Below, one piece after another: positions 44,077 through 61,177 of a DNA stretch of 64,000 bases. A program made the position numbers and the translations under genes. The notes below the pieces were generated by a model. The model made no database searches, was not told the DNA's origin, and saw only the letters and a program-made list of their open reading frames with translations. The stretch spans positions 7,028-71,027 of the forward strand of contig DAOUQJ010000004.1 of the NCBI GenBank assembly GCA_030625685.1. The letters are read 5' to 3'. This DNA comes from Oscillospiraceae bacterium (lineage in GTDB: Bacteria; Bacillota; Clostridia; Oscillospirales; Oscillospiraceae). The stretch's first letter is position 1; the number at the start of each line of letters is the position of its first letter.

Positions 44077-44553
44077 TTACACCCCCAATTCGTGCAAAAT
44101 GTTATAAATGGTGTCTTTGATTGCCTTAGCCGCTGTTTTGGGCGCTGTTTTCCCCGGAAGTCCTGGCAGTCTTTGTGCATTGAGCCCCAATCGTGCGGCT
44201 GCATCCATATCAACCCCGCCTGGGTCAGATGCCAAATCAATGATAAATGCATCCATCTGCACTCGTTCGAGATGCACTTCATCAAGAATAAGCGCAGGCA
44301 CTGTATTGATGATGAGCTCATACCCACCCATCCAATACAGTAGTTGTCTACTGTCTTCCACACCATATCCATATGCTTCTGCCCATGCCCAATCTTCACA
44401 CTTTCGAGAAGCTACCGTTACTCTTGCACCTAAGTTTTGAAGACGATGCGCCGTGAGTTTCCCCACTCTACCATAGCCAATCACTAGTGCTTTAGTGCCA
44501 TGCAAGGTAGAAGGCATATTTCGCATGGCAACCTGTATAGCACCTTCTGCAGT
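44077..44553 (-). CDS. dpaA: dpaA (spoVFA) 3' segment (about 158 codons, Rossmann domain)
   Basis: The reading frame is open up to the junction: ...PT-AEGAIQVAMRNMPSTLHGTKALVIGYGRVGKLTAHRLQNLGARV. Compare B. subtilis DpaA IPTVEGTIMLAIQHTDYTIHGSQVAVLGLGRTGMTIA. There is no start codon or SD at its 5' end. Confidence 0.8.
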   Translation of the reverse strand, partial: TAEGAIQVAMRNMPSTLHGTKALVIGYGRVGKLTAHRLQNLGARVTVASRKCEDWAWAEAYGYGVEDSRQLLYWMGGYELIINTVPALILDEVHLERVQMDAFIIDLASDPGGVDMDAAARLGLNAQRLPGLPGKTAPKTAAKAIKDTIYNILHELGV

Positions 44554-44558
44554 AGGTA
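44552..44558. repeat. dpaA junction core GTAGGTA (partner GTCGGTA at 60789-60795)
   Basis: The two copies are offset by exactly 16,237 bp, and the reading frames of the two gene halves coincide at this offset. Confidence 0.65.
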
Positions 44559-44682
44559 GGGGGTTGTCAATAGTGCAATATAGGTTTGCATTTTACCTTA
44601 TATAAATCTTTAAAATATATGTTTAAAATTCAAACTGCTAATTCTCTTAAAATCTTATCCTATAAACAAAGCTTTTATAAAA

Positions 44683-44723
44683 TAACCATCCGATGAATTG
44701 AAATAAAATTCATCGGATGGTTA
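44683..44723. repeat. Perfect 17-bp inverted repeat (hairpin) about 130 bp inside the dpaB-proximal end of the element
   Basis: taaccatccgatgaatt-gaaataa-aattcatcggatggtta. A T run follows only on the minus strand. Confidence 0.6.
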
Positions 44724-44865
44724 TCATATATTATGTGCTCAGCGTATATCTAATTGATTTTTGCATTTTACAGAGTTCGAAATGATAGAGTTAATAGCTG
44801 ACAATCATTATCAAAATCAACCATATTTCTAGTAATTAACAACTTTAAACCATTATTTGGAAAGC

Positions 44866-44894
44866 TTGAAAATTCTGACGATTTATGATATATT
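44866..44894 (+). promoter_or_regulatory. Candidate sigma-A promoter of the tmk-like operon
   Basis: TTGAAA (44866-44871), a 17-nt spacer, TATATT (44889-44894). Confidence 0.4.
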
Positions 44895-44941
44895 TTAATA
44901 AATAAAGTATAAGAACCTCAAAAAAAACAGGAGGTAATAAT

Positions 44942-45919
44942 ATGTTGTCAAAACTGAAATTATTATTATTGGAAAATTCTGAATTAGATTTTGTAATGGA
45001 AAGAATAAATGAAAATGACAAGCTAAAATTATTAGCCTGGTATTCAAAAAGTATTACTCACAATAAAAATATAGATATAGTTGAAATCCTAAAAATATTT
45101 TTATGGTGCTATACAGAAGGCAGAAGAATTGAAGAAAGAGAAAATCCCGAAATGTTTGGAAGGTGTTTTGAAGAAAAATCCAATGAATTCCAACTTTCTA
45201 AAAACGATTTAGCGAATTTGTTTTTTTCCCATTATTCACTTTACAATGATGATACGAATTTTGAAATCAATAACGAGAACAATCAAAGTGAAAATGTTCG
45301 TGGCAAGTTCATTGTTTTTGAAGGATTAGACGGTTCAGGTAAAAGTACTCAAATTGCTAAATTAGTTAGTAAGCTTCGAGCTATAGGCAAACATGTTCAT
45401 GAAACAGCTGAACCCACAAACTCTGGTACTGGAGGGCTAATTAGAGATACTTTGAGTAATAATTATCAACGTGATCCATACGAATTAGCTTCACTATTTT
45501 TAGCTGATAGAATTTCACATAATGTAAATCCTATGTATGGAATTAATAAGTACTTAGATGAAGGCATAAATGTTATTTGTGATAGATACTACTATTCCTC
45601 CTTTGCATATCAAGGTATTTCTGCAGATATTGATTATGTGATGGATATAAACTTAACTTGCAAAAAAATCACTAAACCTGATTTATGTATATTCTTAGAT
45701 TTAGATGTTGACGATTGTATTGAGAGAGTACACAAAGAGCGCGAGCATTATGAAATATTTGAAACAGATGCTAAAATTATGAGTAAAATCAGAAAACAAT
45801 TTCTAGACGTCTTTAAAAAATTAAATGAAACAGAAAATATATTTATTGTTGATTCTAATAGAGCTGTTAGCTCTGTCTCTGAGGAGATTTTTTCTCAGGT
45901 ACTGAAATTATTTTACTAA
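44942..45919 (+). CDS. Thymidylate-kinase-like protein with an unrecognised ~120-aa N-terminal extension
   Basis: FIVFEGLDGSGKSTQ P-loop, TAEPTNSGTGGLIRD, LFLADRISH and CDRYYYSSFAYQG are Tmk family motifs. The strong SD is AACAGGAGG. Confidence 0.7.
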   Translation: MLSKLKLLLLENSELDFVMERINENDKLKLLAWYSKSITHNKNIDIVEILKIFLWCYTEGRRIEERENPEMFGRCFEEKSNEFQLSKNDLANLFFSHYSLYNDDTNFEINNENNQSENVRGKFIVFEGLDGSGKSTQIAKLVSKLRAIGKHVHETAEPTNSGTGGLIRDTLSNNYQRDPYELASLFLADRISHNVNPMYGINKYLDEGINVICDRYYYSSFAYQGISADIDYVMDINLTCKKITKPDLCIFLDLDVDDCIERVHKEREHYEIFETDAKIMSKIRKQFLDVFKKLNETENIFIVDSNRAVSSVSEEIFSQVLKLFY

Positions 45920-45939
45920 TTAATTAAGGAGATATAGGA

Positions 45940-46590
45940 TTGAAAAGCTCGAAAGATTTAAAAACTGTTGAGTATGTTAAATTTTTTCTCAACTCATTCT
46001 TGATGATTATTGGCTGGGTGTGTACAACATATGGTGTAATTTTGCAATATTTTGATAAATCTTATCAGGCTTTAAGCATTATTGTTATTTTTATCATAAT
46101 TAGTTCTCTTATTTATTTCCAATTTAAACATCTTAAAAATATAAATGTTAATAAATCTGAACAATTTTCACAAGAAGAAGTAAACAAATACCTTTTAGAC
46201 TGGATTTCTACTCATGAAAGAACCGTTATATTTACTAGAGATTTTAGTTGGGCAAAGTACAATTTTGAATTATTTGAATGTTTAGTAAATAAATCAAAAA
46301 GAAGAGAGTTAGTAATTTGTCTATCCCAAAAAAATGAGGCAACTAATGAATTAGAAAAATTAGGAGCCGAAGTTTTTGAACACAATATTCCAGAGTCCAA
46401 TTTAAAATCAAGATTTATAATAAATGGATATGGAACAAATTCCCCGCGGGTTAATGTTGGTTCTAAAAAAACAAATGCTCATTTTGTAAATGAAATTTAT
46501 GATGTTAATTCTTCCTCAAATGCTTGTCATTCATTTGTAGAATTATTTGAATTAGCAAAGCAAAAAAACTTAGCCATAAATAATACATAA
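45940..46590 (+). CDS. 2-TM membrane protein with an uncharacterised cytoplasmic domain
   Basis: Two hydrophobic helices (FLNSFLMIIGWVCTTYGVIL, LSIIVIFIIISSLIYF). It starts 20 nt after the tmk-like gene behind AAGGAG and ends at a strong terminator. Confidence 0.5.
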   Translation: MKSSKDLKTVEYVKFFLNSFLMIIGWVCTTYGVILQYFDKSYQALSIIVIFIIISSLIYFQFKHLKNINVNKSEQFSQEEVNKYLLDWISTHERTVIFTRDFSWAKYNFELFECLVNKSKRRELVICLSQKNEATNELEKLGAEVFEHNIPESNLKSRFIINGYGTNSPRVNVGSKKTNAHFVNEIYDVNSSSNACHSFVELFELAKQKNLAINNT

Positions 46591-46635
46591 AGAACTAGGA
46601 TGAGCTATATTTTTCAGCTCATCCTAGTTCTTTCT
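46591..46635 (+). terminator. Intrinsic terminator of the tmk-like operon
   Basis: Perfect 16-bp stem agaactaggatgagct/agctcatcctagttct. Confidence 0.7.
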
Positions 46636-46778
46636 TGATTGGTTTCCTTATATACTATTTAGGAATAATTCTAATCTACAAATTTCGTTTTGACAGAATT
46701 GCTTGACAGAACAACTGTAAATCTAGGTATATTTTTTGTTAGGCATTAAATTAATAGTAAAAGATTAATATTTTTCCA

Positions 46779-48377
46779 TCAGGAATCTTCTAAAATTTTA
46801 CTTTCTGTTATAAAAAATTTATACTCCCAATTAGCTCTACTAATACGAAAATGAATATCAAATATGTAGGGAAATGCATGAAAGTAAATTTGAACACTTC
46901 GATTAAATATAACTATTTTATCAATTATACTCTGATATAGTTGTTCGGATCTTATGCTATGATTAAAAATATTGTTAATTGTATTAAGAATATTTTCAAA
47001 CCGTTCCTTTTGCTGTTTTTGCATTGACTCTTGAATTTCTAGTTCATGAATATCTTTAAATAAAATATTTAATCTTTGATCAAGTTCTGTTTTTAAAATA
47101 TTCAATTCTTCTCTTGTTATCTTTTCATCTATCAATGCACTTATAGCATTAGATTTTTTGTTTTTTAATACATCAACTTTTCTTTTCAGTATATTAATTC
47201 TTCTATTGTAATTGATATATTTTAAACTAGTAATTTCTTTTAAGATTTCTTTTTTGGTTTCTATAGCATTATCACATAATAAATCTATTGCTTCATTTAT
47301 ACATAATATGAGTATATCTTCTCGAATCCTAGCATTATTACAACCCACAAATTCATTATTGTCGTTTAAATGCTGTTTACCATTCTTCCTTTTATTCCCG
47401 CATACCCAAGAATGATTATAACCTTCTTTGCTCTTTGTCATAGAAGAAAGAAACTTGTGTCCACATTCACCACAAAATACTTTTCCTGAACACCAATATT
47501 TATTTGAAAACTTCGATTTATCTTTTTGAGGAGTTTGTCGTGATTTAAGAATAACTTGAGCCTTATTCCAACGTTCTCTATCAATAATCGCTTCGTGATT
47601 ATTCTCTATGTAAATCTTATCATCTTTATCTTTATTTAATTCTTTGATATGCGATAAAAAGTCCTTTGTAATATACTTTTTATGTAGAATATCTCCTACA
47701 TATTTTTCGTTTTTTAGTATCTTTAAAACACTTTCTTCAGACCACAAATCAGCATATACTGGTTTAATCCCTTTATTATTTAATTCTTTCGCTATTACAC
47801 TTGAACCTTTTTGTTCCTCTACATATTTATAATAAATTTGTTTTACAATTTCAGCTTGGCTTTCATTAATTGATAGTTTTCCGTCTACTAAATTATATCC
47901 TAAAATTGAGTTGTTTCCAAATACAACCCCCTGTTCCATCCGTCTCTTTTGACCCCATTTGACACGTTCAGAAGTTTTTCTGGATTCTTCCTGAGCAACA
48001 GAAGCCATAATAGTGAGTCGAAACTCGCCTTCGTTATCAAGAGTATTGATGTTATCATTGATAAAAAAAACGCCAACTCCAATTTCTTTCAATTTTCTCG
48101 TTTGAGTCAAAGTATCCACCGTATTTCTTGAAAAACGTGATACTTCTTTTGTGATAATTAAATCAATCTCTCTATGATTTGCTAAAAATATCATTTTATT
48201 AAATTGCACTCGATTCTTAATAGATGTGCCTGAAATTCCTTCATCAGCAAAGATTGCAACTAACTCCCAGTCATCGTGTTCTTCTATATATGACTTAAAA
48301 TACTTTTGTTGGTTTTCTAAACTGTTGACTTGGTCTTCTTTGTCAGTAGATACTCTACAATAAACTGCTACCTTCAT
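46779..48377 (-). CDS. Large serine recombinase (paralog A)
   Basis: MKVAVYCRVSTDKEDQ, EVSRFSRNT, AQEESRKTSERVKWG, and zinc ribbon CSGKVFCGECGHKF...WVCGN. About two-thirds identical by eye to 50705-52333. Confidence 0.9.
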   Translation of the reverse strand: MKVAVYCRVSTDKEDQVNSLENQQKYFKSYIEEHDDWELVAIFADEGISGTSIKNRVQFNKMIFLANHREIDLIITKEVSRFSRNTVDTLTQTRKLKEIGVGVFFINDNINTLDNEGEFRLTIMASVAQEESRKTSERVKWGQKRRMEQGVVFGNNSILGYNLVDGKLSINESQAEIVKQIYYKYVEEQKGSSVIAKELNNKGIKPVYADLWSEESVLKILKNEKYVGDILHKKYITKDFLSHIKELNKDKDDKIYIENNHEAIIDRERWNKAQVILKSRQTPQKDKSKFSNKYWCSGKVFCGECGHKFLSSMTKSKEGYNHSWVCGNKRKNGKQHLNDNNEFVGCNNARIREDILILCINEAIDLLCDNAIETKKEILKEITSLKYINYNRRINILKRKVDVLKNKKSNAISALIDEKITREELNILKTELDQRLNILFKDIHELEIQESMQKQQKERFENILNTINNIFNHSIRSEQLYQSIIDKIVIFNRSVQIYFHAFPYIFDIHFRISRANWEYKFFITESKILEDS

Positions 48378-48418
48378 TTAGCTTATCATCCTTTTTGTAT
48401 TACTTCATAATAATATTA

Positions 48419-48565
48419 TTACTCATTAAGTTCTACTAACTTTTTTAATTCCTCATTTGTTATTAGCTTTTTTTCATACAATGTGTAGTATATACCAACT
48501 TTAAGACGTTTCTTAGTAGCTGAATAATTTTGAAGATTATATTTGGAGCAATCATTTAACAACAT
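48419..48565 (-). CDS. Conserved 48-aa ORF upstream of recombinase A
   Basis: Below the ORF-track cutoff. MLLNDCSKYNLQNYSATKKRLKVGIYYTLYEKKLITNEELKKLVELNE, with SD GAGGTG. Ungapped, 23 of 48 residues are identical to the ORF at 50531-50680. Confidence 0.55.
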   Translation of the reverse strand: MLLNDCSKYNLQNYSATKKRLKVGIYYTLYEKKLITNEELKKLVELNE

Positions 48566-49029
48566 TATATAACACCTCAGCACTCTTTGCACTTTAAATA
48601 ATATGGCTATTTCTTATACTCATAAATAACTATATGGAATAGCTTATTTAACTGTTCATATTTATAAAACTTACTATTAATATAATTGATTAACTGTATG
48701 TTCAACGAAACTCTGATATTACAGTGACGCACATTAAGTATTTTGTGAAGTACAAAACGCTCCGCTCAATGTTGAAAAAAATCACTAGAAGGATTATGCC
48801 TTTTGTTGTTGTCGTATTTAAACATGCGTTTTTTATTCTTCGAGCACAGATTAAACTTGTTCCTTTACAAAGACTGCAATTTTTTTAAGATGTCCTTTTT
48901 ATTATCAATGATTAAATTTTTACTCTAGCAAGTCATCTAAATTTACTATTATTAATTAAAAAAGCATCAGCCGTTAATGGTTGATGCTCTCATACAATAA
49001 ATGTAAAGAAATGAATATGAAATTCGGCT

Positions 49030-49150
49030 AAAAATGCTGATGTAGATTTCCATTGGTTAGATGATAAGGGAATATGGAACAACAGCAACAGCGATCCTGC
49101 CGAGTTGTATAACAGTGCTGGGGAATTAATCGATAGATTAGAGGATTAAG
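49030..49150 (+). pseudogene. Startless C-terminal gene remnant (about 40 codons)
   Basis: The frame reads NSAKNADVDFHWLDDKGIWNNSNSDPAELYNSAGELIDRLED*. It is preceded by in-frame stops and has no ATG. A strong terminator follows at 49181-49225. Confidence 0.35.
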
Positions 49151-49180
49151 AACAACTAACCTCTAAAATTTAATTTTAAT

Positions 49181-49225
49181 AAAAAACCGTTCATTCTTAT
49201 TTTAGTAAGAATGAACGGTTTTTTG
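49181..49225 (+). terminator. Intrinsic terminator
   Basis: Perfect 15-bp stem aaccgttcattctta/taagaatgaacggtt followed by TTTTT. Confidence 0.7.
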
Positions 49226-49333
49226 CTGTTGTTGAAAATCAATAAGACAGCAAGTTATTTAGAAAAAATGGGGGTTGACCAAAATTCTATGGTATTGCAA
49301 TCTATTTTTTGTAGTCTTACACATTTAAATTTC

Positions 49334-50017
49334 TTAATCATACGTATTTGGGGAGTAATTTAACTCATTGAGAACATCTAACATATATTTATCTTTAAAG
49401 TATCCATCTGTATAGAAACATACAAATTGAATAACTTTAATTAAGTAAGCAGTAATAATTCCAACAAAGATTATTGAAAAGACTGATTTTGAAACTATGT
49501 TATTCCCTGCGTAAATCACACTGGCTATGAGCGCACCAAGAGGTACACCAATAAGTATATCATAGATTTTATTCCCGATTTTTTCATATTTATCTTTATG
49601 CAAATTTAAAGCAGTTTCACATTCTTTTTTTAATTGAAATATCATTTGTTCCCCCATAATTCCATGTTTTTCAAGAATACTTTCTATATCAGAAACATAT
49701 TTCTGATAATTCGCATTTTGTTTTTCAAGTTCTTCTTTTCGGGCAGATTCGCAATATAAATTCTTTTCCCTTTGAATCTCACCAAAAATTGCAGCAACAA
49801 TCATTGAAGTTATTGGAAGTAAAATCCATATATTTGTTAAATGTTTAATTATTAGTATAATCATTGTAATAATAGAAATTAGTATTGTTGCTATGATAAC
49901 CCAAAGTGAACGTTTAAAAAGACGTACCATATCTGGGAAACTTCGATTGAAATTTAACTTACTCATCGGGTTCTGCTCGTAGATTTCTCGTCGAACATAA
50001 TAATATTTTTTTGTCAT
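49334..50017 (-). CDS. 4-TM membrane protein with a central coiled-coil-like segment, hypothetical
   Basis: 227 aa. It has two N-terminal and two C-terminal hydrophobic helices flanking a charged EELEKQNANYQKY... segment. I recognise no family. Confidence 0.5.
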   Translation of the reverse strand: MTKKYYYVRREIYEQNPMSKLNFNRSFPDMVRLFKRSLWVIIATILISIITMIILIIKHLTNIWILLPITSMIVAAIFGEIQREKNLYCESARKEELEKQNANYQKYVSDIESILEKHGIMGEQMIFQLKKECETALNLHKDKYEKIGNKIYDILIGVPLGALIASVIYAGNNIVSKSVFSIIFVGIITAYLIKVIQFVCFYTDGYFKDKYMLDVLNELNYSPNTYD

Positions 50018-50422
50018 TTATCTTATTCCTTATTCCTTTATGATATAATCAATATTGTTTAATATTACGTTATATTTATCATCATTTTAATCAGATAAAT
50101 GAATATTATCGAAATCTTTTCATTCACGCCATTTATGAAAAAGTTGCGACAATATTTACCTAACTCCATTTTTGTTCTGTTAACTTTTACATGTTACTAC
50201 AATATATTGATTTTTACAACTTTTAAAAATAAAAGGATATGTCTCCACATATTAAACCCATCATCCTAGAGAATGAAATCATACAGCCAATCAATTTCAA
50301 AATTGATTTAACTAAAATGAGGGGTTCACTTTTATCTTTTTGGTTTAAAATCTATATTGATATAAAACTCACTGATCTGGGTATTTTGTTATATCCAATA
50401 TTACTGTCTGCGATTAATTTTT

Positions 50423-50460
50423 AAAAAAGACGTTCAGAAATTGTTCTGAACGTCTTTTTT
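50423..50460 (+). terminator. Intrinsic terminator
   Basis: Stem aagacgttcagaa/ttctgaacgtctt followed by TTTT. Confidence 0.65.
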
Positions 50461-50530
50461 AGATGATATAAATATATTAATTCAATAACCGCATAAAATA
50501 TTCAAAGTCTAATCTAAAAGGTGGGATAGT

Positions 50531-50680
50531 ATGAAGACAATGGACAACAACAAATACAGTTTAGACAATTACTCAACTGCTCGTAAATGCTTTAAACGAG
50601 GTGTTTACTTTACTTTATTTGAAAAGAATAAAATATCCTACGTTCAGTTAAAAAAACTAATCGAAAAAAACCGCTTATAA
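50531..50680 (+). CDS. Conserved 49-aa ORF upstream of recombinase B
   Basis: MKTMDNNKYSLDNYSTARKCFKRGVYFTLFEKNKISYVQLKKLIEKNRL, with SD AAAGGTGGG. It is a homolog of the ORF at 48419-48565. Confidence 0.55.
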   Translation: MKTMDNNKYSLDNYSTARKCFKRGVYFTLFEKNKISYVQLKKLIEKNRL

Positions 50681-50704
50681 TTCATATGGGAGAAAAAGAT
50701 TTTC

Positions 50705-52333
50705 ATGAAAGTAGCAGCCTATTGTCGTGTATCAACAGATAAAGATGATCAATTACATAGTCTAGCCAACCAAATTGAATACTTTACAACATATATCAAT
50801 AACCACAATACTTGGCAGTTGGTGGACATTTTCGCTGACGAAGGTATCACTGGAACTTCTACCAAAAATCGAACCGAGTTTAATCGAATGATTTCTATGG
50901 CACAGAATAAAGAACTTGATTTTATCATTACAAAAGAAGTATCTCGTTTTTCTAGAAACACCATTGACACATTATCATATACGCGTCAGTTAAAAGAGAT
51001 GGGAATAGGGGTTCTATTTATTAATGATAATATCAACACCCTCGACAATGAAGGTGAATTTAGACTCACCATTATGGCATCCGTTGCGCAGGAAGAATCC
51101 AGAAAAATATCTGAACGTGTTAAGTGGGGTCAAAGAAGAAGCATGGAACAAGGTGTGGTGTTCGGTAATAATTCAATATATGGCTATCATTTAGTCAGTG
51201 GAACATTGACCATTGACAAAAAGCAAGCTGAAATTGTAAAAGAAATCTATTTCAAATATGTAGAAGAGAGAAAAGGCTCAAAAACAATTGCAAATGAATT
51301 AACACGCAATGGGATAAAACCTGTATACGCGAATTCTTGGTCAGCAGAAACCATTATGAAAATTTTAAAAAACGAAAAATATGCTGGCGATGTTTTACAT
51401 AGAAAATATGTGACGACAAATCATCTAAACCATACTGCGACACTAAATACCAATAAAGATGATGTCATTTTCATCAAAGACAATCATCCTGCGATTATTG
51501 ATAAAAAAACATGGAACAAAGCACAATCTATCATAAAATCAAGAAATTTCAAACTAGAAAATCAAAGAAACAGAGACGAGTATTGGTGCTCAGGTAAGCT
51601 GTTTTGTGGGGACTGTGGCGCTAAATTTTTTTCCTGTGCTACGAAAGGAAAAGAAGGCTATCATCACTCTTGGGTATGCTCTAACAAGAAAAAACACGGC
51701 AAGCAAAAGTTGAATCACAATCTCGAATGCGTTGGGTGCAATAATTCTAGAATTCGTGATGATATCCTCGTGTTATGCTTGAGCGCGGCAATAAAATTAT
51801 ATTGTAGCCATTCGAGCAAGACAAAAAAAGAGATAGTAAACGAGTTAGAGCATCTTCAATTTGTAAATTATAAAAAACAAAAGAATCAATTAAAAAAAAC
51901 CATAGAAACGTTACATGACAACAAAACCAAAGCTTATATCTCATTTCTCAATAATGAACTAGCGAAAGATGAAATCGACTATATTAACAAGGAAATTGAC
52001 AAAAAAATCAATATACAACATGAAGAACTAGAGAAAATTGAAAAACTCGATTCTCTGCAGAACATGCAAAAAGAAAACTTCAAAGAAAGAGATGCTATCC
52101 TTCAAGATATTTATAATAACACGTCAAATGAAATGCTAGAAAAATTATATGATTGTATCGTCGAAAAAATAGTTATCTTCAAAAGAAATGTCCAAATTCA
52201 CTTCTATGGCTTACCTTTTGTCTTTGACATTCATTTTCGTGTCAGTAGAACAAATTCAAAATATAACGTATACATAACAGAACAACAAATCTTAGAAAAC
52301 ATGAACAATTCTCACAACACGCTTTTCTCATAA
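50705..52333 (+). CDS. Large serine recombinase (paralog B)
   Basis: MKVAAYCRVSTDKDDQ, EVSRFSRNT, AQEESRKISERVKWG, and CSGKLFCGDCGAKF...WVCSN. Confidence 0.9.
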   Translation: MKVAAYCRVSTDKDDQLHSLANQIEYFTTYINNHNTWQLVDIFADEGITGTSTKNRTEFNRMISMAQNKELDFIITKEVSRFSRNTIDTLSYTRQLKEMGIGVLFINDNINTLDNEGEFRLTIMASVAQEESRKISERVKWGQRRSMEQGVVFGNNSIYGYHLVSGTLTIDKKQAEIVKEIYFKYVEERKGSKTIANELTRNGIKPVYANSWSAETIMKILKNEKYAGDVLHRKYVTTNHLNHTATLNTNKDDVIFIKDNHPAIIDKKTWNKAQSIIKSRNFKLENQRNRDEYWCSGKLFCGDCGAKFFSCATKGKEGYHHSWVCSNKKKHGKQKLNHNLECVGCNNSRIRDDILVLCLSAAIKLYCSHSSKTKKEIVNELEHLQFVNYKKQKNQLKKTIETLHDNKTKAYISFLNNELAKDEIDYINKEIDKKINIQHEELEKIEKLDSLQNMQKENFKERDAILQDIYNNTSNEMLEKLYDCIVEKIVIFKRNVQIHFYGLPFVFDIHFRVSRTNSKYNVYITEQQILENMNNSHNTLFS

Positions 52334-52598
52334 TTTAACACGTATTGAATAGCGTGTTACTCCTTTATTTTTACTATAAACATGCAGTATTTGAATCTAT
52401 ACCCAATTGCAAGCATCTATTACTCTCATTTCACTCTGTTGTATGATAACTATATAAGATCATATATGCTTTAAAAGTCCTTTTCATAAGGACTTTTTAT
52501 TTTTATAAAGTAGCTAACAAAAAACATTCTGTATTTACGAAAATATTTTTCTATAAAATAGAAAATTACGAAAATGAATTTTTTACGTGAAAACAATA

Positions 52599-52757: not shown

Positions 52758-52777
52758 ATTCGTCTTTTTGGAGAGTT

Positions 52778-52806
52778 CCGTTCAGTCAACCTGGACGGTT
52801 TTTTGT
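52778..52806 (+). terminator. Riboswitch expression-platform terminator
   Basis: Stem ccgttcag/ctggacgg followed by TTTTTTGTTGTTT. Confidence 0.6.
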
Positions 52807-52907
52807 TGTTTAAATAATCAATAAAAAACGCAAAAGCTCTTACTGAAAACCGCACGAAAAATTGTTACCTACACACAGAAATGAAATAAATTGAAGAAGG
52901 GATAACC

Positions 52908-53669
52908 ATGAAAAATAATAAACTAAATAGATGTTCCTCGTTCTTTCTTGCTCTTATCATAAGTTTGTCACTTTTTTCTTTTAATGCATCTGCTGTGAAG
53001 AATACCCCAGATACTCAAGAAGCTCCTGTAGTGACTGATAGTATTCCAGACACGCAAGAATCTCCCGAAGTGACCGACACTACTCCAGATACCCAAGAAT
53101 CTCTCGAAGTGACCGACACTACTCCAGACGCGCAAGAATCTCCCCAGGTGACCGACACTTCTCCAGATACTCAGGATTCTTCTGAAGCTGCTAATACTAA
53201 CACTGAAGAAGCTACTCTCATAAAATTAGAACCTGAACTAACTGCTGAAGAAAAAGCTGCAATTGAGTTTACGCAAGAAGTGTTAAGACTTGTGAATGAA
53301 AAGCGAGTAGAAGCAGGTATACTAGAACTGAATTCAATGGATGTTTTAACTGAACTAGCTCAAATAAGAGCGATTGAATCTTCTCAAGCTTTTAGTCACA
53401 CAAGACCTGACGGCACCAAATATTATACTATATTTAGTGAATACTTCCTTAGATATCGATGTGTGGGCGAAAATCTGGCTTATGGCTATAATACACCTGA
53501 ATCAGTCGTCAGAGCTTGGATGAAATCAAAATCACATAAAGCCAATATCTTAAATGCTAATTATAAATACATTGGCATTGGTTATACAAAAAAATCTGGT
53601 AAAGTGTATTGCTCACAACTATTTTATACCCCAACAATGATGCTCGCACAACCACAACCAATGATTTAA
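52908..53669 (+). CDS. Secreted CAP/SCP (YkwD-like) domain protein with an acidic tandem-repeat linker
   Basis: Signal peptide, PDTQE(S/A)P(E/V)VTD repeats, and a C-terminal CAP pattern (VNEKR...L, AFSHTRPDG, GENLAYGY, WMKSKSHKANIL). Confidence 0.8.
   Translation: MKNNKLNRCSSFFLALIISLSLFSFNASAVKNTPDTQEAPVVTDSIPDTQESPEVTDTTPDTQESLEVTDTTPDAQESPQVTDTSPDTQDSSEAANTNTEEATLIKLEPELTAEEKAAIEFTQEVLRLVNEKRVEAGILELNSMDVLTELAQIRAIESSQAFSHTRPDGTKYYTIFSEYFLRYRCVGENLAYGYNTPESVVRAWMKSKSHKANILNANYKYIGIGYTKKSGKVYCSQLFYTPTMMLAQPQPMI
53007..53201 (+). repeat. Five tandem 39-bp (13-aa) coding repeats, the last one degenerate
   Basis: Units begin CCAGA(T/C)AC at 53007, 53046, 53085, 53124 and 53163. Confidence 0.85.
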
Positions 53670-53823
53670 ACGCAAAAGCTCCCATAACTCAATAAAGAGT
53701 TATGGGAGCTTTTTACTGGCATCTATCATAGCTTAGAATACATCTACCAGTATAAAACAAGGTGGCAACTTAAGTTGCCACCTTGTTTTTACATTTTTAA
53801 ATGCTTATCAGTTTTCAATGATT

Positions 53824-56800
53824 CTAGGAAAGAACTTCTCCTGGATTTTCTGAGGAGTTTGCATTAGACCATTCCGCTTCTAATGCTGCCCAATCTCTAA
53901 CTGGTAGCAATTCAGTCCATGTTTCATGTACATCGCCAGACTCATACATAAAGTTATGTGAGTTTGTTGCTTCTTGAATATCAGGATAATACCATTTGTT
54001 TTCATCTGCATTATCAGGCCATGTAATCATACCATCAAGCATATGATCTTTTTCAGGAGAACGACCGAGCAAATTATTAATAATACGGATTGCTTCAGCT
54101 CTTGTAATATTGTTATCCGGTTTGAATGTGCCATCTGGATAACCTGCGATCAATCCATTTTCAGCAATATGGTTGATATAATTTACTGCCCAATGCCCGT
54201 TGATATCTGAGAACCAGTCATTTGATCCTGTATAGCTTCCTCCATAGAACCTTGAAGTCATAGTCGCAAGCTCAGCGCGCGTAATCGGACTGTTCGGATA
54301 GAAATTTCCATTAGGATGGCCTTCTACTATGCTTCCTTTGGTAAGTGTTGATATCGCATTGTTATACCAAAGTATAGATTCTACATCCGCATATTTATTG
54401 CTTTGGCTCCAATATGAATCTCTTGCGGAATCGTTCAGCATTCTGAAGAATATTGTAGCAACCTCTGCTCTTGTAATTGGAGCTTCTGGATATACAAATC
54501 CATCATCAAAACCAATAATGTATGCATAATGATCTGTAATCATATCTTCTTCACCCAAAACTCCACCACTTGATGTACTAGATCTTTTTGCTTTAATTCT
54601 GAAATCTCCAGGAATAACTGTTACATTATAGTTGAAATTTTCTGTGAAATCTGCTGTGATTACACCATCATATGTACCAACTGATTCATCACTATTGGCT
54701 CGGATGTATGTTATGGTTCCAAGATCATCAGGAGAAACCAAGGTGCCTGAGGTAATGCTTCCTGTAAATTCAGGATCATCTCTTCTGACTGTTTTTCTAC
54801 CGTCATCCACAGTGATTGTGATATCAACTTGTGTAATTGTCAGTGTGCCTTCTTCTTTGGTGATGTTATAAGCACTTGTTACATCATCTGTGCCACGCAT
54901 AATCGCAATATCTGTAATTGTATTTGCTGCTGTGCCCGCGTCTGTAATCGTTCCCGTTACCATCGCAGTTAAAACGTCACCTTGAACTAGGGTATCACTA
55001 TAGGTATAGCTACTTTCTCCAGTTGTGAGCGCTGTTCCATCATACATTTTACTTGCATCTGGGGAAGATACTGTCACGGAATTGCCACCTTCTGTTACCC
55101 TCAATGTACCCAAAACTTTTGCAATGATGTAGTTTTCAGCAAGTGTTACTTCATTCAGTGTGTAAGTAAATGTATTGTCACTGCTTCCAACAGATGTTTG
55201 GCTACCAGTCACATTGAAAGTTGCCCCTTCACCTTGAACAAAACCATCTCCACTTTCGGCAACTGTATGATTGAGCAATGCTGTTCCATCATATACCTTA
55301 GTAGCATCTCCTGAAGTTAAAGTAACCGACCGCGCTGTCACTTGAATGGTGACATCATCCGTAAATAAGTCTTCATTTCCTTCTTGCAATGCTTTCACAC
55401 TTACTGTCACGATACCTTCAGATACATTTGTGACACTAGGGGCTGTGGAAGACCACTCTCCAGTACCAACTTTATAGTAAATCGTGTATCCTGTCGGTGC
55501 GTTTGCCATGACAGCGTGTGCATTTCCGTCATAAAGCCAAGCCCCACCGTATGCTTCTAACTCTTCTCCAGTTGAATTGTCTTTAATCTCAAAATCACCT
55601 GGCATAATGGTTACATCATAATTTGAATTTGCAGTATAGTTTGCAGACAACACTTCCATATATACTCCAACACTTTCTTCAGATGTATTGGTACGATAGT
55701 AAGAAATTGTTCCCAAATCATTGCCGTCTACTAGTGCTCCTGATGTAATGGAGCCAGTAAAGACTGGGTCTGCTTCTCCAAAGAATTTTTCTGCATCGTT
55801 GACTGTGATTGTAACCATACTTGCGGTCAAATTCAGTTGACCGTTTTCAATTGTGATATCATATTTCGTCGTCACATCATAATCATCTGACGTATCGCCC
55901 TCTGTGCCATCATCATTCATAATTGCATATCCAGCATCAATTGCATTCGTTACAGGACTGTCAGCAACATTTGTAATACTACCACTTGAGCTGGCTACCA
56001 AGTAATCGCCATCATTCAAACTTCCTGATGTAACTGTAACGCTGTCGAAGCTATGAGCATTGCCATCATATTCCCAAGTTTGGCTGCCAGCAGTAATTGT
56101 AATGGGTGTGAGCGCGAAATAGGAATAGTAGATATCGATAGCACCATAATATTCACTTGTCAAATCAACAGTAACTGTTCCGTCTTCTGATACGCTTACC
56201 GTTCCTTCACCACTAGGTATCGCCTGGTCAACAACAGTATTTCCGACAGATGTCTCAGAAATAACTTCCTCTCCATCAATCTCTACGACAACATTCAGAT
56301 AGTCATATCCTTCAATGGATACTGGATTTTTTTCGTATGTTCCAACTTGCAATCCATTAAAACTAACAGGTTCTGTTTGTGTTAAGTCAATGATAGGATC
56401 AGCGGGTGGATATTCATGAAACACATTTAGAGAACCTAACACTTGAAAATATGTATTTTCTAATTCAAATCCTCCTGGAAAATTAAGAGCAATTAAAAGT
56501 TGAGCTGGTATTTCAGATACTTCAATGGCTCCAATCATCCAATAATATGCGCCACTGTCATTTTTTCCATATGGCGCTTCGTCTATCACTATTGCACCAC
56601 TGCCATCCTTAACTACTAAGTTTGTATTATCTGGATAATTTCTCACATCGGGGAGTTCATCCCAATAATCAACAGTTATACCATCAACTTCTAAATGGTA
56701 TTTTGCATCACTCAAACTGTGGTTCATGGTTGTAAGTGCTACATACACGTAATTTCCATCTTGCCACACATATCGCGCATTGGTATGGTCATTAGTTGAA

Positions 56801-56982
56801 TCAGCTATCAAATTGTATACACCTAAATCAGCAGTATACCCATTTCCTGAATCAAAGGCAGGTGTTGCAGCGGAAGAAGTTGTAGAAACCACCAATGCCA
56901 ATAATGCAACAACGATTACAGATGCAATGAGCCATTTTCTCAATCTCTGCGGATGTGCATTTATTTTACTCGTGTCATTCAT
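53824..56982 (-). CDS. Large SLH-anchored surface protein with MBG-type (YDGxA) repeat domains
   Basis: Signal anchor, repeated ...YDG(N/T)A... and DP(V/E)FTGSITSG(A/T)LV..DDLGTI(S/T)Y modules, and three C-terminal SLH repeats (ITRAEVATIFFRML etc.). I place the start at ATG 56982 behind AAAGGGGA. Confidence 0.8.
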   Translation of the reverse strand: MNDTSKINAHPQRLRKWLIASVIVVALLALVVSTTSSAATPAFDSGNGYTADLGVYNLIADSTNDHTNARYVWQDGNYVYVALTTMNHSLSDAKYHLEVDGITVDYWDELPDVRNYPDNTNLVVKDGSGAIVIDEAPYGKNDSGAYYWMIGAIEVSEIPAQLLIALNFPGGFELENTYFQVLGSLNVFHEYPPADPIIDLTQTEPVSFNGLQVGTYEKNPVSIEGYDYLNVVVEIDGEEVISETSVGNTVVDQAIPSGEGTVSVSEDGTVTVDLTSEYYGAIDIYYSYFALTPITITAGSQTWEYDGNAHSFDSVTVTSGSLNDGDYLVASSSGSITNVADSPVTNAIDAGYAIMNDDGTEGDTSDDYDVTTKYDITIENGQLNLTASMVTITVNDAEKFFGEADPVFTGSITSGALVDGNDLGTISYYRTNTSEESVGVYMEVLSANYTANSNYDVTIMPGDFEIKDNSTGEELEAYGGAWLYDGNAHAVMANAPTGYTIYYKVGTGEWSSTAPSVTNVSEGIVTVSVKALQEGNEDLFTDDVTIQVTARSVTLTSGDATKVYDGTALLNHTVAESGDGFVQGEGATFNVTGSQTSVGSSDNTFTYTLNEVTLAENYIIAKVLGTLRVTEGGNSVTVSSPDASKMYDGTALTTGESSYTYSDTLVQGDVLTAMVTGTITDAGTAANTITDIAIMRGTDDVTSAYNITKEEGTLTITQVDITITVDDGRKTVRRDDPEFTGSITSGTLVSPDDLGTITYIRANSDESVGTYDGVITADFTENFNYNVTVIPGDFRIKAKRSSTSSGGVLGEEDMITDHYAYIIGFDDGFVYPEAPITRAEVATIFFRMLNDSARDSYWSQSNKYADVESILWYNNAISTLTKGSIVEGHPNGNFYPNSPITRAELATMTSRFYGGSYTGSNDWFSDINGHWAVNYINHIAENGLIAGYPDGTFKPDNNITRAEAIRIINNLLGRSPEKDHMLDGMITWPDNADENKWYYPDIQEATNSHNFMYESGDVHETWTELLPVRDWAALEAEWSNANSSENPGEVLS

Positions 56983-57455
56983 AATACTATCCCCTTTCAT
57001 CTACTTTGATGTACGAAACATCATTTTCTTTACAACGTTCCTGTCAATGCGCTCGTCTTGATTTTCTGCTGATAAAATGATCTATCCACAACCCTTACCC
57101 TAACCATTGTACTGTTTTTGTATATCTTAATTAATTGTTTTAGACTTCCATAAAATTCATTACATTTTTGTTTATTTTGCATATTTATAACTAGATTTTT
57201 TTATATTTTTTGTCTATTTTATTTTGTTATTATACCATGCATGAATTATTTGTCAAATTATTTATCAAAAATTGGATAAATTAATTTATGTATATATGTA
57301 AGACCTAAAAAAAACTACTTTAGACTCAATAGAAAAGATTGAACCCTCTGTTTTTTCTTAAATTTTAAATACCAAGACGCTTTTTTTCTACCTTTCTCGC
57401 TTCATCTATGTTAATTTACGATAAAATCAAACGCAATACTCTGTTATATACTTCC

Positions 57456-57493
57456 AAAAACCCCCTATAGCCAATAAAGGTTATAGGGGGTTT
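57456..57493. terminator. Bidirectional terminator hairpin
   Basis: Stem ccccctata/tataggggg flanked by AAAAA and TTT. Confidence 0.55.
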
Positions 57494-57631
57494 AATATTA
57501 TTTATTCATCATATCACAAATTGAGAAGCTCAATTGTTAGTATAGTTCATCGTCACTTTCAATTTGAAAACTGTTTCCATAGAGTAAAGCGTTACGATTC
57601 ATTCTGTAAAGTAACAAGCCTGAACTTCTTT

Positions 57632-60310
57632 TTATTTTGACAACACTTTTGCAATGAATACTGAAACAACATTGGGATCAAACTGTTTTCCAGCACAACT
57701 TTTAAGCTCAACAATCGCTTCTTCTTGCGTCATCGGTGCTCGATAAGGTCTTTCCGTTGTCATAACATCAAAAGCATCCGCAACTGAAATAATCCTAGAC
57801 TCTAATGGAATCTCGTCCCCTTTCAGTCCTTTGGGATATCCTCTGCCATCATAACGCTCATGGTGTGAAAGAACAACATCTGAAATGTCTTTATATTCCA
57901 CCGTATTTTCCAAAATACGTGCGCTCTTGGCAGGATGTGATTTCATAATTTCCCATTCATCATCTGCCAATGAATTAGGCTTATTTAGAATGCTCTCATT
58001 GATGCCAATTTTTCCGATATCATGAAACAGCCCAGCCACACGAATTCGATTGATTGCCACTTCATCCAAATTCATTTTTAGGGCTATCGTTTCACATAAA
58101 AGGCTTACGCGTGCCGAGTGCTTCTGTTCTCTTTCACTCTTTTCAAACAGTGTCATCATAATTGCCTTGATTGTTTTGCTTTTCATACTTCTACTATTGT
58201 AGAATTTTCTTCGATACATGAAGACGCCAGCTTCCTTCATCAAGGTATCCAAAGAATCGCCATGATTCTTTTGCATAGCATATCCAAAGGAAATGGATAA
58301 GCCAATGGATTTTCGTCTATCTTCAGTGTTAACAACACGTTCTCTATTGATAGAATCTAAATTTTGAATGAGTCTTTGCACTTCTTTTTCGTTGGTGCCT
58401 GTCATTAAGATTGCAAATTCATCGCCACCGATTCTTGCAACGACCTCACCTTCTCGAAGAAAAGAATTAATTCTTTGCGCAGTCTCTTTGAGCATTTCAT
58501 CGCCGACGGTATGTCCGAATGAATCATTGATGAGTTTGAGCCCATTCAAATCACCAAGGATAATCGCCAATGGGAAATGCTCCGATCTATTTTTTTTGTC
58601 AAACTCCAATTCCAAATATCGCCGATTGTTGATCGCCGTTAGATGGTCATGATACGCCAATTTCTTGATTTCTTTTAAGGCATCTTCGCGATCTGTAACA
58701 TCAAAAATTATGGAACACAGCGCACTCTGATTGTCATACTCAATTTGAGAAGAAAACACATCCACCATTTTAATTTCACCACTTTTTAACCGATGTGGAA
58801 ATGTAAAATGTTGTTGTTCTTTTACCAGTGCCTTCGTCAATGACTCTCGAACGGTATCTTCGTCAAGCATATTTAATTTTGCAATATTCATACTGCGTAG
58901 TTCTTGGATAGAATATCCATAAAACTCAATTGCAGCAGGATTTGCATCCAAAATCGTACCTGATATTGGATCCACGACTAAAATATTTGCATGTGTTCCA
59001 TTGATCATCGCATTAAAATGTGACAACTGTTTGTCTTTTTCGTCTGACACACGCTTTTTCTCTGTGATATCAAGGCCTATTGCATAAAATGTAAAATAAT
59101 TGCCTTGCTGATCAAACACAGCCGTACCGCGCCATTCAATCCATTTAACATGCCCAGCAACTTGAATGCTGTGTGTATACGTCGCATATGGTTTGTCTAT
59201 TGTTAGGTTCAAATATCGGTTGCTTACTTCGGCTCTTTCTTCCGATGGAATAAAGTCTTGAATGCTTCTACCCAAAAGCTGTTGAGGTGTTTTTCCAAAA
59301 TAATCGCAACAAGCTTCATTGACAAATGTCATTTTTCCATCTGTTTGAAACTCACAAACCAATGCAGACAGCGCATTGAAAATAATCTTATATTTCTGTT
59401 CTTCAACCTGAATTCGTTCAATCAAATCTTTTTGCTTATGAACGCTCCAACCACTTTGCAGTAATATCATCACCTGATTGGCATCAAAATCGCTATACTC
59501 ATGCGAATTATTGGCCAAATCAACTACCGCCACAACTTGCTCATTAACGATAATTGGCAGGGACATATGATATTTATATTGATGATAGGGTTTTGTAAAA
59601 TAACTGGGTTTTTGTGAACTGTTAAAAATAATGTAGTTTTTTTCCACAACAACCTTTTGCCACACGTGTCTCATGCTATCTTGTAGCGTGCTTTGATCGT
59701 TACTATTCTGTATTTGCAATGCAACTTCGTTACCATTGGATGTGATGCGAAATTCCTCTAATGTCTCATCATATAAACATAGATTGACGAATTCACTACT
59801 CGTAAGTTCGAGTGTTTTTTGTTGAATGTACATTAAAAATTCATTTTGATCGTCAAACCGTACGCTGTAAATATCCAACAGTATCTCCTGTCTTTTCACA
59901 ACGCTTTCGTTTTCTAGCATCTTTGTTTCAATGTTTATTTTTTCAGTCATATTTTCAAAAGTGCTTACAAAATAACCTTTTTCTGTTGAAAATGAATTTA
60001 CCTTATAATAGCTGTTATTGTGTGTTTGAAATATTTCAAACACCATTTTTCTGCCGTCCATCGCCACACGAGAAAACTTTAAAAGTCTCCAATTGAGCTC
60101 TTCTGATTTCATCTTAGGAAGGATTTCTGTAACTCGTTTTCCGATGATATCCGAAGCGCGAAGTTGCATCTCTTCTTCAAACGCTGGATTGACTTCTAGA
60201 ATTATGTAGTCATAAGGAACCCCTTGCTCATCTACTAACAGCTGGTTGAGTGAATACGCAAGCGGCAAATTCATTATGATATCATCTGATATTCTACGCT
60301 TCATTTTCAA
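57632..60310 (-). CDS. Multidomain c-di-GMP signalling protein (PAS/GAF sensors, GGDEF, HD-GYP)
   Basis: RIGGDEFAIL (an intact GGDEF), HDIGK and HHERYDGRGYPKGL (HD-GYP), and N-terminal PAS-like repeats. Confidence 0.85.
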   Translation of the reverse strand: MKMKRRISDDIIMNLPLAYSLNQLLVDEQGVPYDYIILEVNPAFEEEMQLRASDIIGKRVTEILPKMKSEELNWRLLKFSRVAMDGRKMVFEIFQTHNNSYYKVNSFSTEKGYFVSTFENMTEKINIETKMLENESVVKRQEILLDIYSVRFDDQNEFLMYIQQKTLELTSSEFVNLCLYDETLEEFRITSNGNEVALQIQNSNDQSTLQDSMRHVWQKVVVEKNYIIFNSSQKPSYFTKPYHQYKYHMSLPIIVNEQVVAVVDLANNSHEYSDFDANQVMILLQSGWSVHKQKDLIERIQVEEQKYKIIFNALSALVCEFQTDGKMTFVNEACCDYFGKTPQQLLGRSIQDFIPSEERAEVSNRYLNLTIDKPYATYTHSIQVAGHVKWIEWRGTAVFDQQGNYFTFYAIGLDITEKKRVSDEKDKQLSHFNAMINGTHANILVVDPISGTILDANPAAIEFYGYSIQELRSMNIAKLNMLDEDTVRESLTKALVKEQQHFTFPHRLKSGEIKMVDVFSSQIEYDNQSALCSIIFDVTDREDALKEIKKLAYHDHLTAINNRRYLELEFDKKNRSEHFPLAIILGDLNGLKLINDSFGHTVGDEMLKETAQRINSFLREGEVVARIGGDEFAILMTGTNEKEVQRLIQNLDSINRERVVNTEDRRKSIGLSISFGYAMQKNHGDSLDTLMKEAGVFMYRRKFYNSRSMKSKTIKAIMMTLFEKSEREQKHSARVSLLCETIALKMNLDEVAINRIRVAGLFHDIGKIGINESILNKPNSLADDEWEIMKSHPAKSARILENTVEYKDISDVVLSHHERYDGRGYPKGLKGDEIPLESRIISVADAFDVMTTERPYRAPMTQEEAIVELKSCAGKQFDPNVVSVFIAKVLSK

Positions 60311-60787
60311 AACTCCTTATACGACATACGGGTAAATGCCAATGAACCTCTTTTCACTCTCTTTGTGTTGTAACTGTTTCCCAAACTATTTTAATTCAAA
60401 CCTTAAAATAATTGCACACAAACAAAGCACATTTGTAAGATTGAGAACTTTCCTTAGAATTTTTCAGAAATGTACCCATTATATCTTAAAATGTAGGATC
60501 AGAAATATTATAGCATATAAACAACATAAAACAACATATTTTGGAATATTCATGCAAAAATTATAGCATTTTTTTCAAAATATCATTCTATACTACCATA
60601 TTTTCTCTTTCTAAAAAATCTGATATCTCACTGTTAATCAGAAGAATCGCCTTTTTCTTTTCAATTCCCTTCACAAATTTAAAAGGGCTTGGTTTAGATT
60701 TTTGAAAAGCCTAATGATTTGATGTATCTTCATCCTTCTATCGAAATTGACTTTTTACACACACTTAAATAGACACTTGGATAACAA

Positions 60788-61177
60788 GGTCGGTACCGCA
60801 TTGGCAATTTGGCATTCTTCTCTTGCATAATAGTCTATGAGCTTGAGTTCTTTTTCGCATGCCATTTCAGTCACTTCTAAAGATGGCATCCCTCCGCAGA
60901 CAATTTGTCCTGGTGATAATCCATCAAAGATTTCTTCTAAGGTATATTCCCTACCGCTAAAAGGTGCATTGAGAGCTCCCTTTTTTAAGACTGGCAAAGG
61001 CAATATGACACAATGCGCCCGTCTGGGATCCATACTGTGTGTATCTTGCATTAGAAACAATGTTTCCAGTGCCACAGTATGTACAGTGTTGCCTTCATTT
61101 TTTAACATATGTGCCAGTTCAACCTGTCGTTGGTCACCGCCAACAATCCAATAATTTCGCTCTCGTTCCAATGGCAC
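60788..61177 (-). CDS. dpaA: dpaA (spoVFA) 5' segment (about 130 codons)
   Basis: NYWIVGGDQRQVELAHML...LIDYYAREECQIANAVPT parallels B. subtilis KIAVIGGDARQLEIIRKL...ERDDIAIYNSIPT. After PT the ORF runs 10 unrelated codons (LLSKCLFKCV*) into the element. Confidence 0.8.
60789..60795. repeat. dpaA junction core GTCGGTA
   Basis: Partner of 44552-44558. Confidence 0.65.

Follow-up and report, generated by a model that had tools for sequence, protein, structure and literature searches.

How might a bacterium make dipicolinic acid (DPA) when the gene for one subunit of its synthase lies in two pieces 16 kb apart? DPA accounts for 5-15% of the dry weight of a spore and is the basis of its heat resistance. 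The question is raised by a 64,000-nucleotide stretch of contig DAOUQJ010000004.1 from an Oscillospiraceae bacterium (hereafter the window, whose positions are used throughout), in which dpaA (spoVFA), the gene for dipicolinate synthase subunit A, is interrupted by an insert of exactly 16,237 bp (44554-60790) that carries two large serine recombinase genes. We find that the two pieces rejoin in silico to a complete gene and consider it probable, by analogy with characterised cases, that the insert is an intervening element of the skin and gin type whose developmentally used excision restores the dpaA-dpaB operon. Expression of dpaAB is confined to the mother cell and depends on sigma-K in Bacillus subtilis (bioRxiv 10.1101/2022.02.25.481979).

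The two pieces of dpaA rejoin to a full-length gene

The pieces of dpaA and the gene behind them are as follows.

60791-61177, minus strand: dpaA 5' fragment, codons 1-129, ending ...NAVPT; its reading frame continues into the element and stops at 60755
44077-44553, minus strand: dpaA 3' fragment, codons 130-287, AEGAIQ...HELGV
43483-44070, minus strand: dpaB, dipicolinate synthase subunit B, directly downstream of the dpaA 3' fragment (NCBIfam 269 bits, cut-off 156)

An earlier, sequence-only reading of the window had claimed that a 16.2-kb element splits dpaA, the 5' part ending in ...CQIANAVPT plus 10 codons, the 3' part resuming at 44553 with dpaB after it, and the co-oriented halves being in phase at an offset of 16,237 bp. 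Our own reading of the frames agrees throughout. The 5' open reading frame (ORF; 61177-60755, minus strand) encodes the N-terminal 129-130 residues of DpaA as far as ...CQIANAVPT, followed by 10 unrelated codons (LLSKCLFKCV) and a stop, and a second frame on the same strand picks up at 44553 with (PT)AEGAIQVAMRNMPSTLHGTKALVIGYGRVGK and terminates at 44077. Joined in silico, 61177-60791 and 44553-44077 form a continuous 864-nt frame that codes for 287 aa, as many codons as had been estimated. The product is collinear with DpaA, matching the NCBIfam DpsA model PRK08306 in a single stretch (positions 6-290 of 297; E 7e-77) with 258.7 bits (curated cut-off 261, a shortfall of 2.3 bits), and Pfam DpaA_N with 83.8 bits (cut-off 29.2).

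The closest intact homologue among the assembled proteins searched has 285 aa and is 82% identical over 99% of the length, and many further DpaA homologues of about 287 aa are 62-72% identical to the joined product; the best match among 185,579 reference genomes scanned, from an uncultured 'Ruminiclostridium' metagenome-assembled genome (MAG; contig L002), reaches 67%. In a 10-sequence alignment the junction introduces no indel and falls inside the invariant block N126-V128-P129-T130-A131-E132-G133-A134 (the NAVPTAEGA motif). All invariant DpaA residues are present, and both dpaA halves and dpaB are intact in the window. The joined product shows the full-length collinear family match and the dpaB adjacency by which we recognise dpaA. 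An exact look-up of the 140-aa N-terminal fragment, with V or M as first residue, returned no record. Judged from the sequence, chance is far too unlikely to explain an in-frame, full-length and collinear rejoining across 16 kb, and we hold it almost certain that a serine recombinase made a precise insertion from which dpaA could be restored.

The split might instead be an assembly artefact, an intact dpaA mis-joined to foreign DNA. The source is evidently an assembly from a metagenome or uncultured organism, and the attL junction (at the 5' fragment) is seen in the window alone. Against a chimera, an independent Logan assembly (run SRR14270297) matches window positions 40705-53783 at 100% identity, which takes in the other junction, attR, and 9 kb of the element; the same core stands at both junctions; and about ten other contigs from different samples have the same insertion site with related recombinases. 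We regard an artefact as scarcely credible.

Short direct repeats bound the insert

The ends of the insert are marked by a shared core, which reads GT(A/C)GGTA on the plus strand, as had been noted before, and TACC(G/T)AC on the gene strand.

60789-60795, minus strand: attL core TACCGAC, with TACC at 60795-60792
44552-44558, minus strand: attR core TACCTAC, with TACC at 44558-44555

The breakpoints are confirmed by the contig that encodes the 82% identical DpaA (L001), in which dpaA is uninterrupted in the order rpoC-murB-small ORF-dpaA-dpaB. Its DNA can be aligned to the window as far as 60789 and then again from 44556, the two alignments overlapping by 5 bp of L001. A further relative (L171) also has an empty dpaA site in the same synteny. 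Deletion in silico between the short direct-repeat cores gives an intact, in-frame gene.

The imperfect inverted repeat formed by the joined element ends (CACTATTGACAAC...GTTATCCAAGTG), also part of the earlier reading, is real but weak, extending over ~9/12 positions with one indel; its element-side arms are CACTATTGACAAC and CACTTGGATAAC. The element arm at attR (ATTGACAACCCCC) resembles the dpaA arm of the unoccupied site, attB (ATTGCCAATGCGG), at 15/21 positions, and a symmetry analysis, with 10/20 positions, did not single out a crossover dinucleotide. The attL and attR of the window have TACC in common, then the G/T mismatch, then AC; those of a related element described below (L167) share only CAGTACCT. 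Since TACC is the sole segment common to the window and L167 cores, the crossover dinucleotide should lie inside it (60795-60792 at attL).

Within the element no further att-like site was found: neither searches with the arms at up to 3 mismatches nor locally aligning attP, attB, attL and attR gave anything above shuffled controls, and tandem or nested elements with the same att sequence thus gain no support. One additional TACCTAC lies on the other strand at 52866; its flanks are unrelated, and one such copy is no more than chance would supply.

Two paralogous recombinase units

The AT-rich core of the element, from 44554 to about 52400, has 28.9% GC (chromosomal flanks 42%) and contains two recombinases, which we call r1 and r2, each preceded by a very small ORF.

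46779-48377, minus strand: large serine recombinase r1, 532 aa, catalytic motif intact, parallel to dpaA
48419-48565, minus strand: 48-aa ORF, 41 nt upstream of r1, ribosome-binding site (RBS) GAGGTG, paralogue of the ORF at 50531-50680
50531-50680, plus strand: 49-aa ORF, 24 nt upstream of r2, RBS AAGGTGG
50705-52333, plus strand: large serine recombinase r2, 542 aa, domains Resolvase, Recombinase and Zn_ribbon_recom, Ser10 present, antiparallel to dpaA

Both proteins match Pfam PF00239, PF07508 and PF13408 above cut-off and conserve the YCRVSTD catalytic motif, and the recombinase N-terminal domain matches PDB 3g13 (E 4e-45). They are thus large serine recombinases (LSRs) of the phiC31, TP901 and SpoIVCA type, and the element encodes site-specific recombinases of its own. 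The two genes are divergent and 2.3 kb apart; their products are 58% identical and are mutual nearest relatives among 5.8 billion clustered proteins. Neither the presence of two recombinase and small-ORF units nor the composite make-up of the element was part of the sequence-only reading.

The two small ORFs are homologous and share the motif K-x-G-[IV]-Y-x-x-L-[YF]-x(4)-[IL]-[ST]-x-x-[EQ]-L-x-x-L; family scans returned no known family for either. Strong hidden Markov model (HMM) matches to this 47-57-aa family (E 1e-25 to 1e-28) occur only beside r1, r2 and the LSRs of four related contigs (L082-L085), and weaker ones, in the same position and strand 50-100 nt upstream, occur in more distant dpaA elements and viral contigs. 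We therefore regard the small protein, on sequence evidence, as a conserved partner of this recombinase family. Weak matches also lie directly upstream of serine integrase genes in the AT-rich viral contigs L172, L173, L174, L180, L181, L185 and L190 (in L190 at 7781-7936, sequence ...IGILKQLHQKKFLTNEQLNILINK), which points to a partner protein, so far unannotated, that is widespread with integrases of this family.

LSRs alone integrate attP into attB. For the reverse reaction they need a small directionality factor, as has been demonstrated with GirC/GirX (gin) and is reported for SprA/SprB (SPbeta) and the Clostridioides difficile skin element (PMC5595907, PMC5499854, PMC5025042). The small-ORF product may tentatively be assigned such a role, an assignment to which we give somewhat less than even weight.

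Of the two enzymes, r2 is the likelier cognate excisase, because its antiparallel orientation to dpaA is conserved in all related dpaA elements. For the r1 unit, its small ORF included, the best reading is that it once served another, related element with dpaA as its target and was absorbed into a composite. This reading has a parallel in gin, a non-phage element with three recombinases of which GirC, with the 42-aa GirX, is required, and which its authors read as composite (PMC5595907); the interchangeability of such recombination units has been demonstrated (PMC6957869).

Alternatively, the insert could be two fused dpaA elements, with one end belonging to each recombinase unit, so that excision needs both r1 and r2, in a mixed synapse or as a pair like CcrA/CcrB. 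Each unit is whole and undamaged although the proteins have diverged by 42%, neither stands much closer than the other to the dpaA-targeting clade, and each of the nine relatives has a single unit at this site, all of which this arrangement would accommodate. We nevertheless judge it improbable: the ends of the element make up a single coherent, if imperfect, inverted repeat, as for one attP, no internal hybrid att site was found, and the units are divergent and not tandem. In addition, the extra recombinases of gin are dispensable (PMC5595907), and the CcrA/B/C family scores lie far under the cut-off (127 against 900).

Two side observations concern the core. Its non-coding parts have two long perfect or near-perfect hairpins with 18-20-bp stems (44676-44730 and 49180-49225), and a short orphan ORF end (...DFHWLDDKGIWNNSNSDPAELYNSAGELIDRLED*, about 49030-49150, plus strand) looks like what is left of the 3' part of a truncated gene. 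Both hint at past rearrangement.

Related elements target the same dpaA motif

After r1 and r2 themselves, the next recombinase relatives are P0123-P0126 (48-54% identity), P0127 and P0134 (46-49%) and the recombinase of L086 (43%). The elements of all these relatives, on at least nine contigs (L082-L086, L167-L170), split dpaA at the core GTACC(T/G)AC, and in every one the recombinase is antiparallel to dpaA, as is r2 and unlike r1. On contigs L082-L085 DpaA_N is followed by cargo, recombinase and small ORF and then by the next dpaA piece. The entire element of L082 and L083 spans only ~2.6 kb and consists of rubrerythrin, the recombinase and a 47-aa ORF; its junctions in L083 read ...GCCAATGCCGTACCTAC|CGCTTGGG at attL and ...GCATACGGTACCTAC|GGCGGAAGG at attR. 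The hosts of L167-L170 and L086 are more distant, their DpaA being only ~44% identical to that of the window over the 3' part, yet the elements sit at the same core; their cargo differs (VWA, BTAD and surface proteins), and the complete L167 element is ~7.6 kb. Empty and occupied sites occur among the relatives, which marks the elements as mobile and as polymorphic within the clade. Metagenome and viral contigs yielded no recombinase relative above ~53% over the full length; an apparently closer one in L190 (66%) was dismissed, as its match covers the conserved N-terminal domain only and is no closer to one member of the clade than to another.

Some relatives have a second cut in dpaA. In L082, L083 and L084 the middle piece ends ...DLASLP and is followed by a different serine recombinase of 503-505 aa, ~25% identical to r1 and r2, so that dpaA there lies in three pieces. 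In L002 the second site alone is occupied, by a 9.1-kb insert whose recombinase is 47% identical to the second-site enzyme of L082. Across the four contigs this cut falls at a DLASxPGG|VD motif and belongs to elements with unrelated serine recombinases of 503-561 aa (L082 7401-12800; L083 5547-10760; L084 344-4678; L002 10735-19884). The two insertion sites are the two most conserved DpaA motifs in the 10-sequence alignment. A whole recombinase clade of uncultured, largely gut-type Clostridia thus aims at one invariant dpaA motif and an unrelated family at another.

Selection on the split gene

We estimated dN/dS between L082 and L083, which have the same three-piece architecture and differ by a dS of 0.15-0.33.

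dpaA N-terminal piece: dN/dS 0.065 (dS ~0.15)
dpaA middle piece: dN/dS 0.026 (dS ~0.15)
murB: dN/dS 0.088
rubrerythrin (cargo): dN/dS 0.05
small ORF: dN/dS 0.19

Dead fragments would not keep values as low as those of the dpaA pieces, and most simply one would conclude that these element-bearing relatives rejoin the pieces and use them.

Programmed excision or plain insertion

The proposed course of events begins with an LSR that would have put the 16,237-bp element into dpaA at TACC(G/T)AC, within the codons of the NAVPTAEGA motif. In the integrated state the dpaA promoter would drive only a truncated product of 140 aa, and with the dpaA 3' fragment and dpaB 16 kb from that promoter dipicolinate synthase would be off; because the promoter region stays with the 5' fragment, their expression from it needs removal of the 16.2 kb. 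Recombination of attL with attR would then release a 16.2-kb circle and rebuild the dpaA-dpaB operon. The predicted attB junction is GCCAATGCGGTACC[T/G]ACTGCAGAAGGTGC, or 5'-ATTGCCAATGCGGTACC[T/G]ACTGCAGAAGGTGCTATACAG, and the predicted attP junction is GACAACCCCCTACC[G/T]ACCTTGTTATCC, or 5'-CACTATTGACAACCCCCTACC[G/T]ACCTTGTTATCCAAGTG. The catalyst would be an LSR of the element, most likely r2, probably aided by the small protein whose ORF immediately precedes it. As in known cases, to argue by analogy, excision would take place in the terminally differentiating mother cell while the spore genome retains the element; this timing is inferred from those cases and from the logic of the target gene.

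The competing view is that the insert is a plain mobile element that has knocked dpaA out and excises for its own transfer or never, the host being asporogenous, forming DPA-less spores or using another DPA route. Some clostridia do form DPA without DpaAB. This view would also fit the empty and occupied sites among relatives, which mark the elements as mobile, the newly acquired look of the AT-rich core, and the failure of our searches to turn up an excised allele or a sporulation promoter. We nonetheless think it unlikely. Both dpaA halves and dpaB are intact with every invariant residue kept; the split fragments of relatives have a dN/dS of 0.03-0.07, as low as murB; and the clade targets dpaA across hosts whose DpaA is only 44-82% identical. 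Moreover, the characterised LSR elements in mother-cell sporulation genes all excise during sporulation (PMC5595907, PMC4191935, PMC6957869).

Several observations weigh against developmentally used excision and temper our preference for it. The GC content of the core (29%, against 42% in the flanks) suggests a fairly recent arrival and not a long-domesticated switch. Upstream of the small ORFs and recombinases, as of dpaA and the cargo genes, we found no convincing sigma-E or sigma-K promoter, only loose regular-expression matches in AT-rich DNA, and the aligned upstream regions of relatives share a conserved block that is sigma-A-like in look. The small ORF is apparently co-transcribed with the integrase, which is unusual for a directionality factor under regulation of its own. 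The proposed scheme gives r1 no part, and no internal att-like site marks a nested or tandem element. No excised, intact allele of this exact dpaA occurs among the assembled proteins searched, the best match being the 82% one. The window holds no second dpaA fragment, a search that covered the window only; the genome may have another copy elsewhere. Finally, the purifying selection was measured in L082 and L083 and not in the window genome.

Relation to known intervening elements

The insert has the structural features of the intervening elements skin, vfbin, vrin, SPbeta and gin. It lacks phage structural, lysis and replication genes and so, like gin, is not prophage-like. The sequence-only reading had called it a second skin-like element; the precise split, the LSRs and the in-frame rejoining uphold that likeness, while the non-prophage character places the insert nearer to gin than to skin.

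Gin, in gerE of Bacillus cereus ATCC10987, is likewise a non-phage intervening element of a late mother-cell sporulation gene, with several serine recombinase genes, a very small accessory ORF, a composite look and a short common core flanked by an imperfect inverted repeat. It differs in its target (gerE there, dpaA here) and in having girA, girB and girC where the dpaA element has two paralogous units, each with a small ORF immediately upstream that is unrelated to anything annotated. The dpaA element further differs in its cargo, a cyclic di-GMP (c-di-GMP) module with surface proteins, and in its host, an uncultured Oscillospiraceae-like clostridium for which we infer excision by analogy.

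The element vfbin, which according to accounts in PMC4191935 and PMC10747680 interrupts spoVFB of Bacillus weihenstephanensis KBAB4, would be alike in making dipicolinate synthase dependent on excision of a serine-recombinase element, as we propose here. As far as those accounts go, it is a prophage-like element that splits dpaB in a Bacillus, whereas the present one splits dpaA in the Clostridia and has no phage structural genes.

With skin in sigK (SpoIVCA/Skr of B. subtilis, CD1231/CD1234 of C. difficile) the dpaA element shares an LSR and the precise in-frame reconstitution of a split sporulation gene; skin elements range from 2.6 to 48 kb with variable cargo (PMC5025042; bioRxiv 10.1101/2022.02.25.481979). 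The target gene and att site differ, and the skin recombinase sits at the edge beside the 3' gene fragment, whereas those of the dpaA element lie well inside it, at 2.2 and 8.4 kb from its ends. SCCmec also has two large serine recombinases on one chromosomal cassette. Its CcrA and CcrB are adjacent, co-oriented and jointly required, while r1 and r2 are divergent paralogues with a small ORF each, and CcrB scores of 125-127 bits against a cut-off of 900 set the insert apart from SCC-type cassettes.

Sporulation genes reported as interrupted include sigK, spoVFB, spoVR, spsM, gerE, kamA and yabG (PMC4191935, PMC5595907, PMC6957869, PMC10747680) as well as cotJC and spoIIID (bioRxiv 10.1101/2022.02.25.481979). 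We found no report of a split dpaA or spoVFA in the full-text literature searched, a coverage that leaves out subscription journals. What is new here is dpaA as target, the recombinase clade and the host group; the mechanism itself is already known.

If our reading is right, DPA synthesis is tied to a DNA excision that acts as an extra checkpoint in late sporulation, and the phenomenon extends from cultured bacilli and clostridia to Oscillospiraceae-like organisms. Split dpaA genes of this kind will be taken for pseudogenes by annotation pipelines, with consequences for sporulation predictions from MAGs. A site-specific serine integrase family with a defined, highly conserved 7-8-bp core and a candidate small partner may also offer tools for genome engineering.

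Cargo of the element

The remaining genes and signals of the insert are listed here; the part from about 52400 to 60790, with 36.6% GC, holds the cargo.

44942-45919, plus strand: thymidylate-kinase-domain protein, 325 aa, with the domain at the C-terminus (Pfam 2.5e-45; PHROG thymidylate kinase)
45940-46590, plus strand: 216-aa protein with N-terminal membrane segments, no family match
49334-50017, minus strand: predicted membrane protein, 227 aa, no family match
52599-52627: sigma-70-like promoter of the riboswitch
52659-52754, plus strand: c-di-GMP-I riboswitch preceding the CAP gene, 74.7 bits (gathering score 35)
52778-52798: terminator-like hairpin after the riboswitch
52908-53669, plus strand: secreted CAP-domain (YkwD-like) protein whose linker has 39-nt tandem repeats
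53824-57000, minus strand: cell-surface protein, 1058 aa, MBG_2 repeats and C-terminal SLH domains
57632-60310, minus strand: GAF/PAS-GGDEF-HD (HD-GYP type) c-di-GMP signalling protein, 892 aa

The ORFs of the element include no capsid, tail, terminase or lysis genes (PHROGs, Pfam, PADLOC) and no relaxase, coupling protein or type IV secretion or conjugation genes (Pfam, PHROGs), so that the insert does not qualify as a conjugative or mobilisable element either. Its PHROGs matches are confined to the integrases, the thymidylate kinase domain and generic SLH and GGDEF domains, the thymidylate-kinase-domain gene being the sole phage-type gene besides the recombinases. A defence-system reading of that gene was set aside, as PADLOC gave generic kinase-domain matches only. 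Among 50,697 phage records and the annotated plasmid records we found no similar DNA beyond short stretches of recombinase genes. The insert is, on this sequence evidence, a composite, non-phage element.

Its cargo has the make-up of a c-di-GMP module, with a riboswitch and CAP gene, a GGDEF-HD-GYP enzyme and an SLH surface protein. Large surface proteins are likewise found in related dpaA elements (LRR/MBG/SLH in L082, a further one in L086, MBG in L170); homologues of the cargo genes in related loci were not informative. The linker of the CAP protein contains four tandem 39-nt (13-codon) repeats of the TPDTQE-SPEVTD type (53003-53197), and the Logan contig stops ~600 bp past these repeats, at window position 53783.

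A second interrupted sporulation gene nearby

The sequence-only reading had also pointed to a split spoIIID in the neighbourhood, and we see the same. This gene (29567-37539) has a 5' part that ends ...GISKSTVH near 29690 and a 3' part that starts near 37390 (29.69/37.39 kb); the core CAACTGTACATA is common to both ends, the insert is ~7.7 kb, and a third serine recombinase (35869-37371, plus strand) adjoins the 3' fragment. The spoIIID and dpaA interruptions are ~6.5 kb apart, and a span of 32 kb takes in both interrupted sporulation genes. For R. cellulolyticum, too, a skin-like element in spoIIID is on record (bioRxiv 10.1101/2022.02.25.481979).

One could imagine that late sporulation in this lineage is wired through serial programmed excisions (spoIIID, and dpaA at one or, in relatives, two sites) that delete the cargo functions from the mother cell, with both recombinase units of the dpaA element possibly required. 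We rate this as speculative and quite unlikely. If it were true, excision would turn sporulation genes on and at the same time remove riboflavin, c-di-GMP and surface functions, amounting to programmed genome editing with regulatory consequences. Behind an FMN riboswitch (106 bits) the spoIIID element itself contains a complete ribD-ribE-ribBA-ribH operon (30598-34231), each of whose four genes exceeds its NCBIfam equivalog cut-off, which places a housekeeping biosynthesis inside a putatively excisable element.

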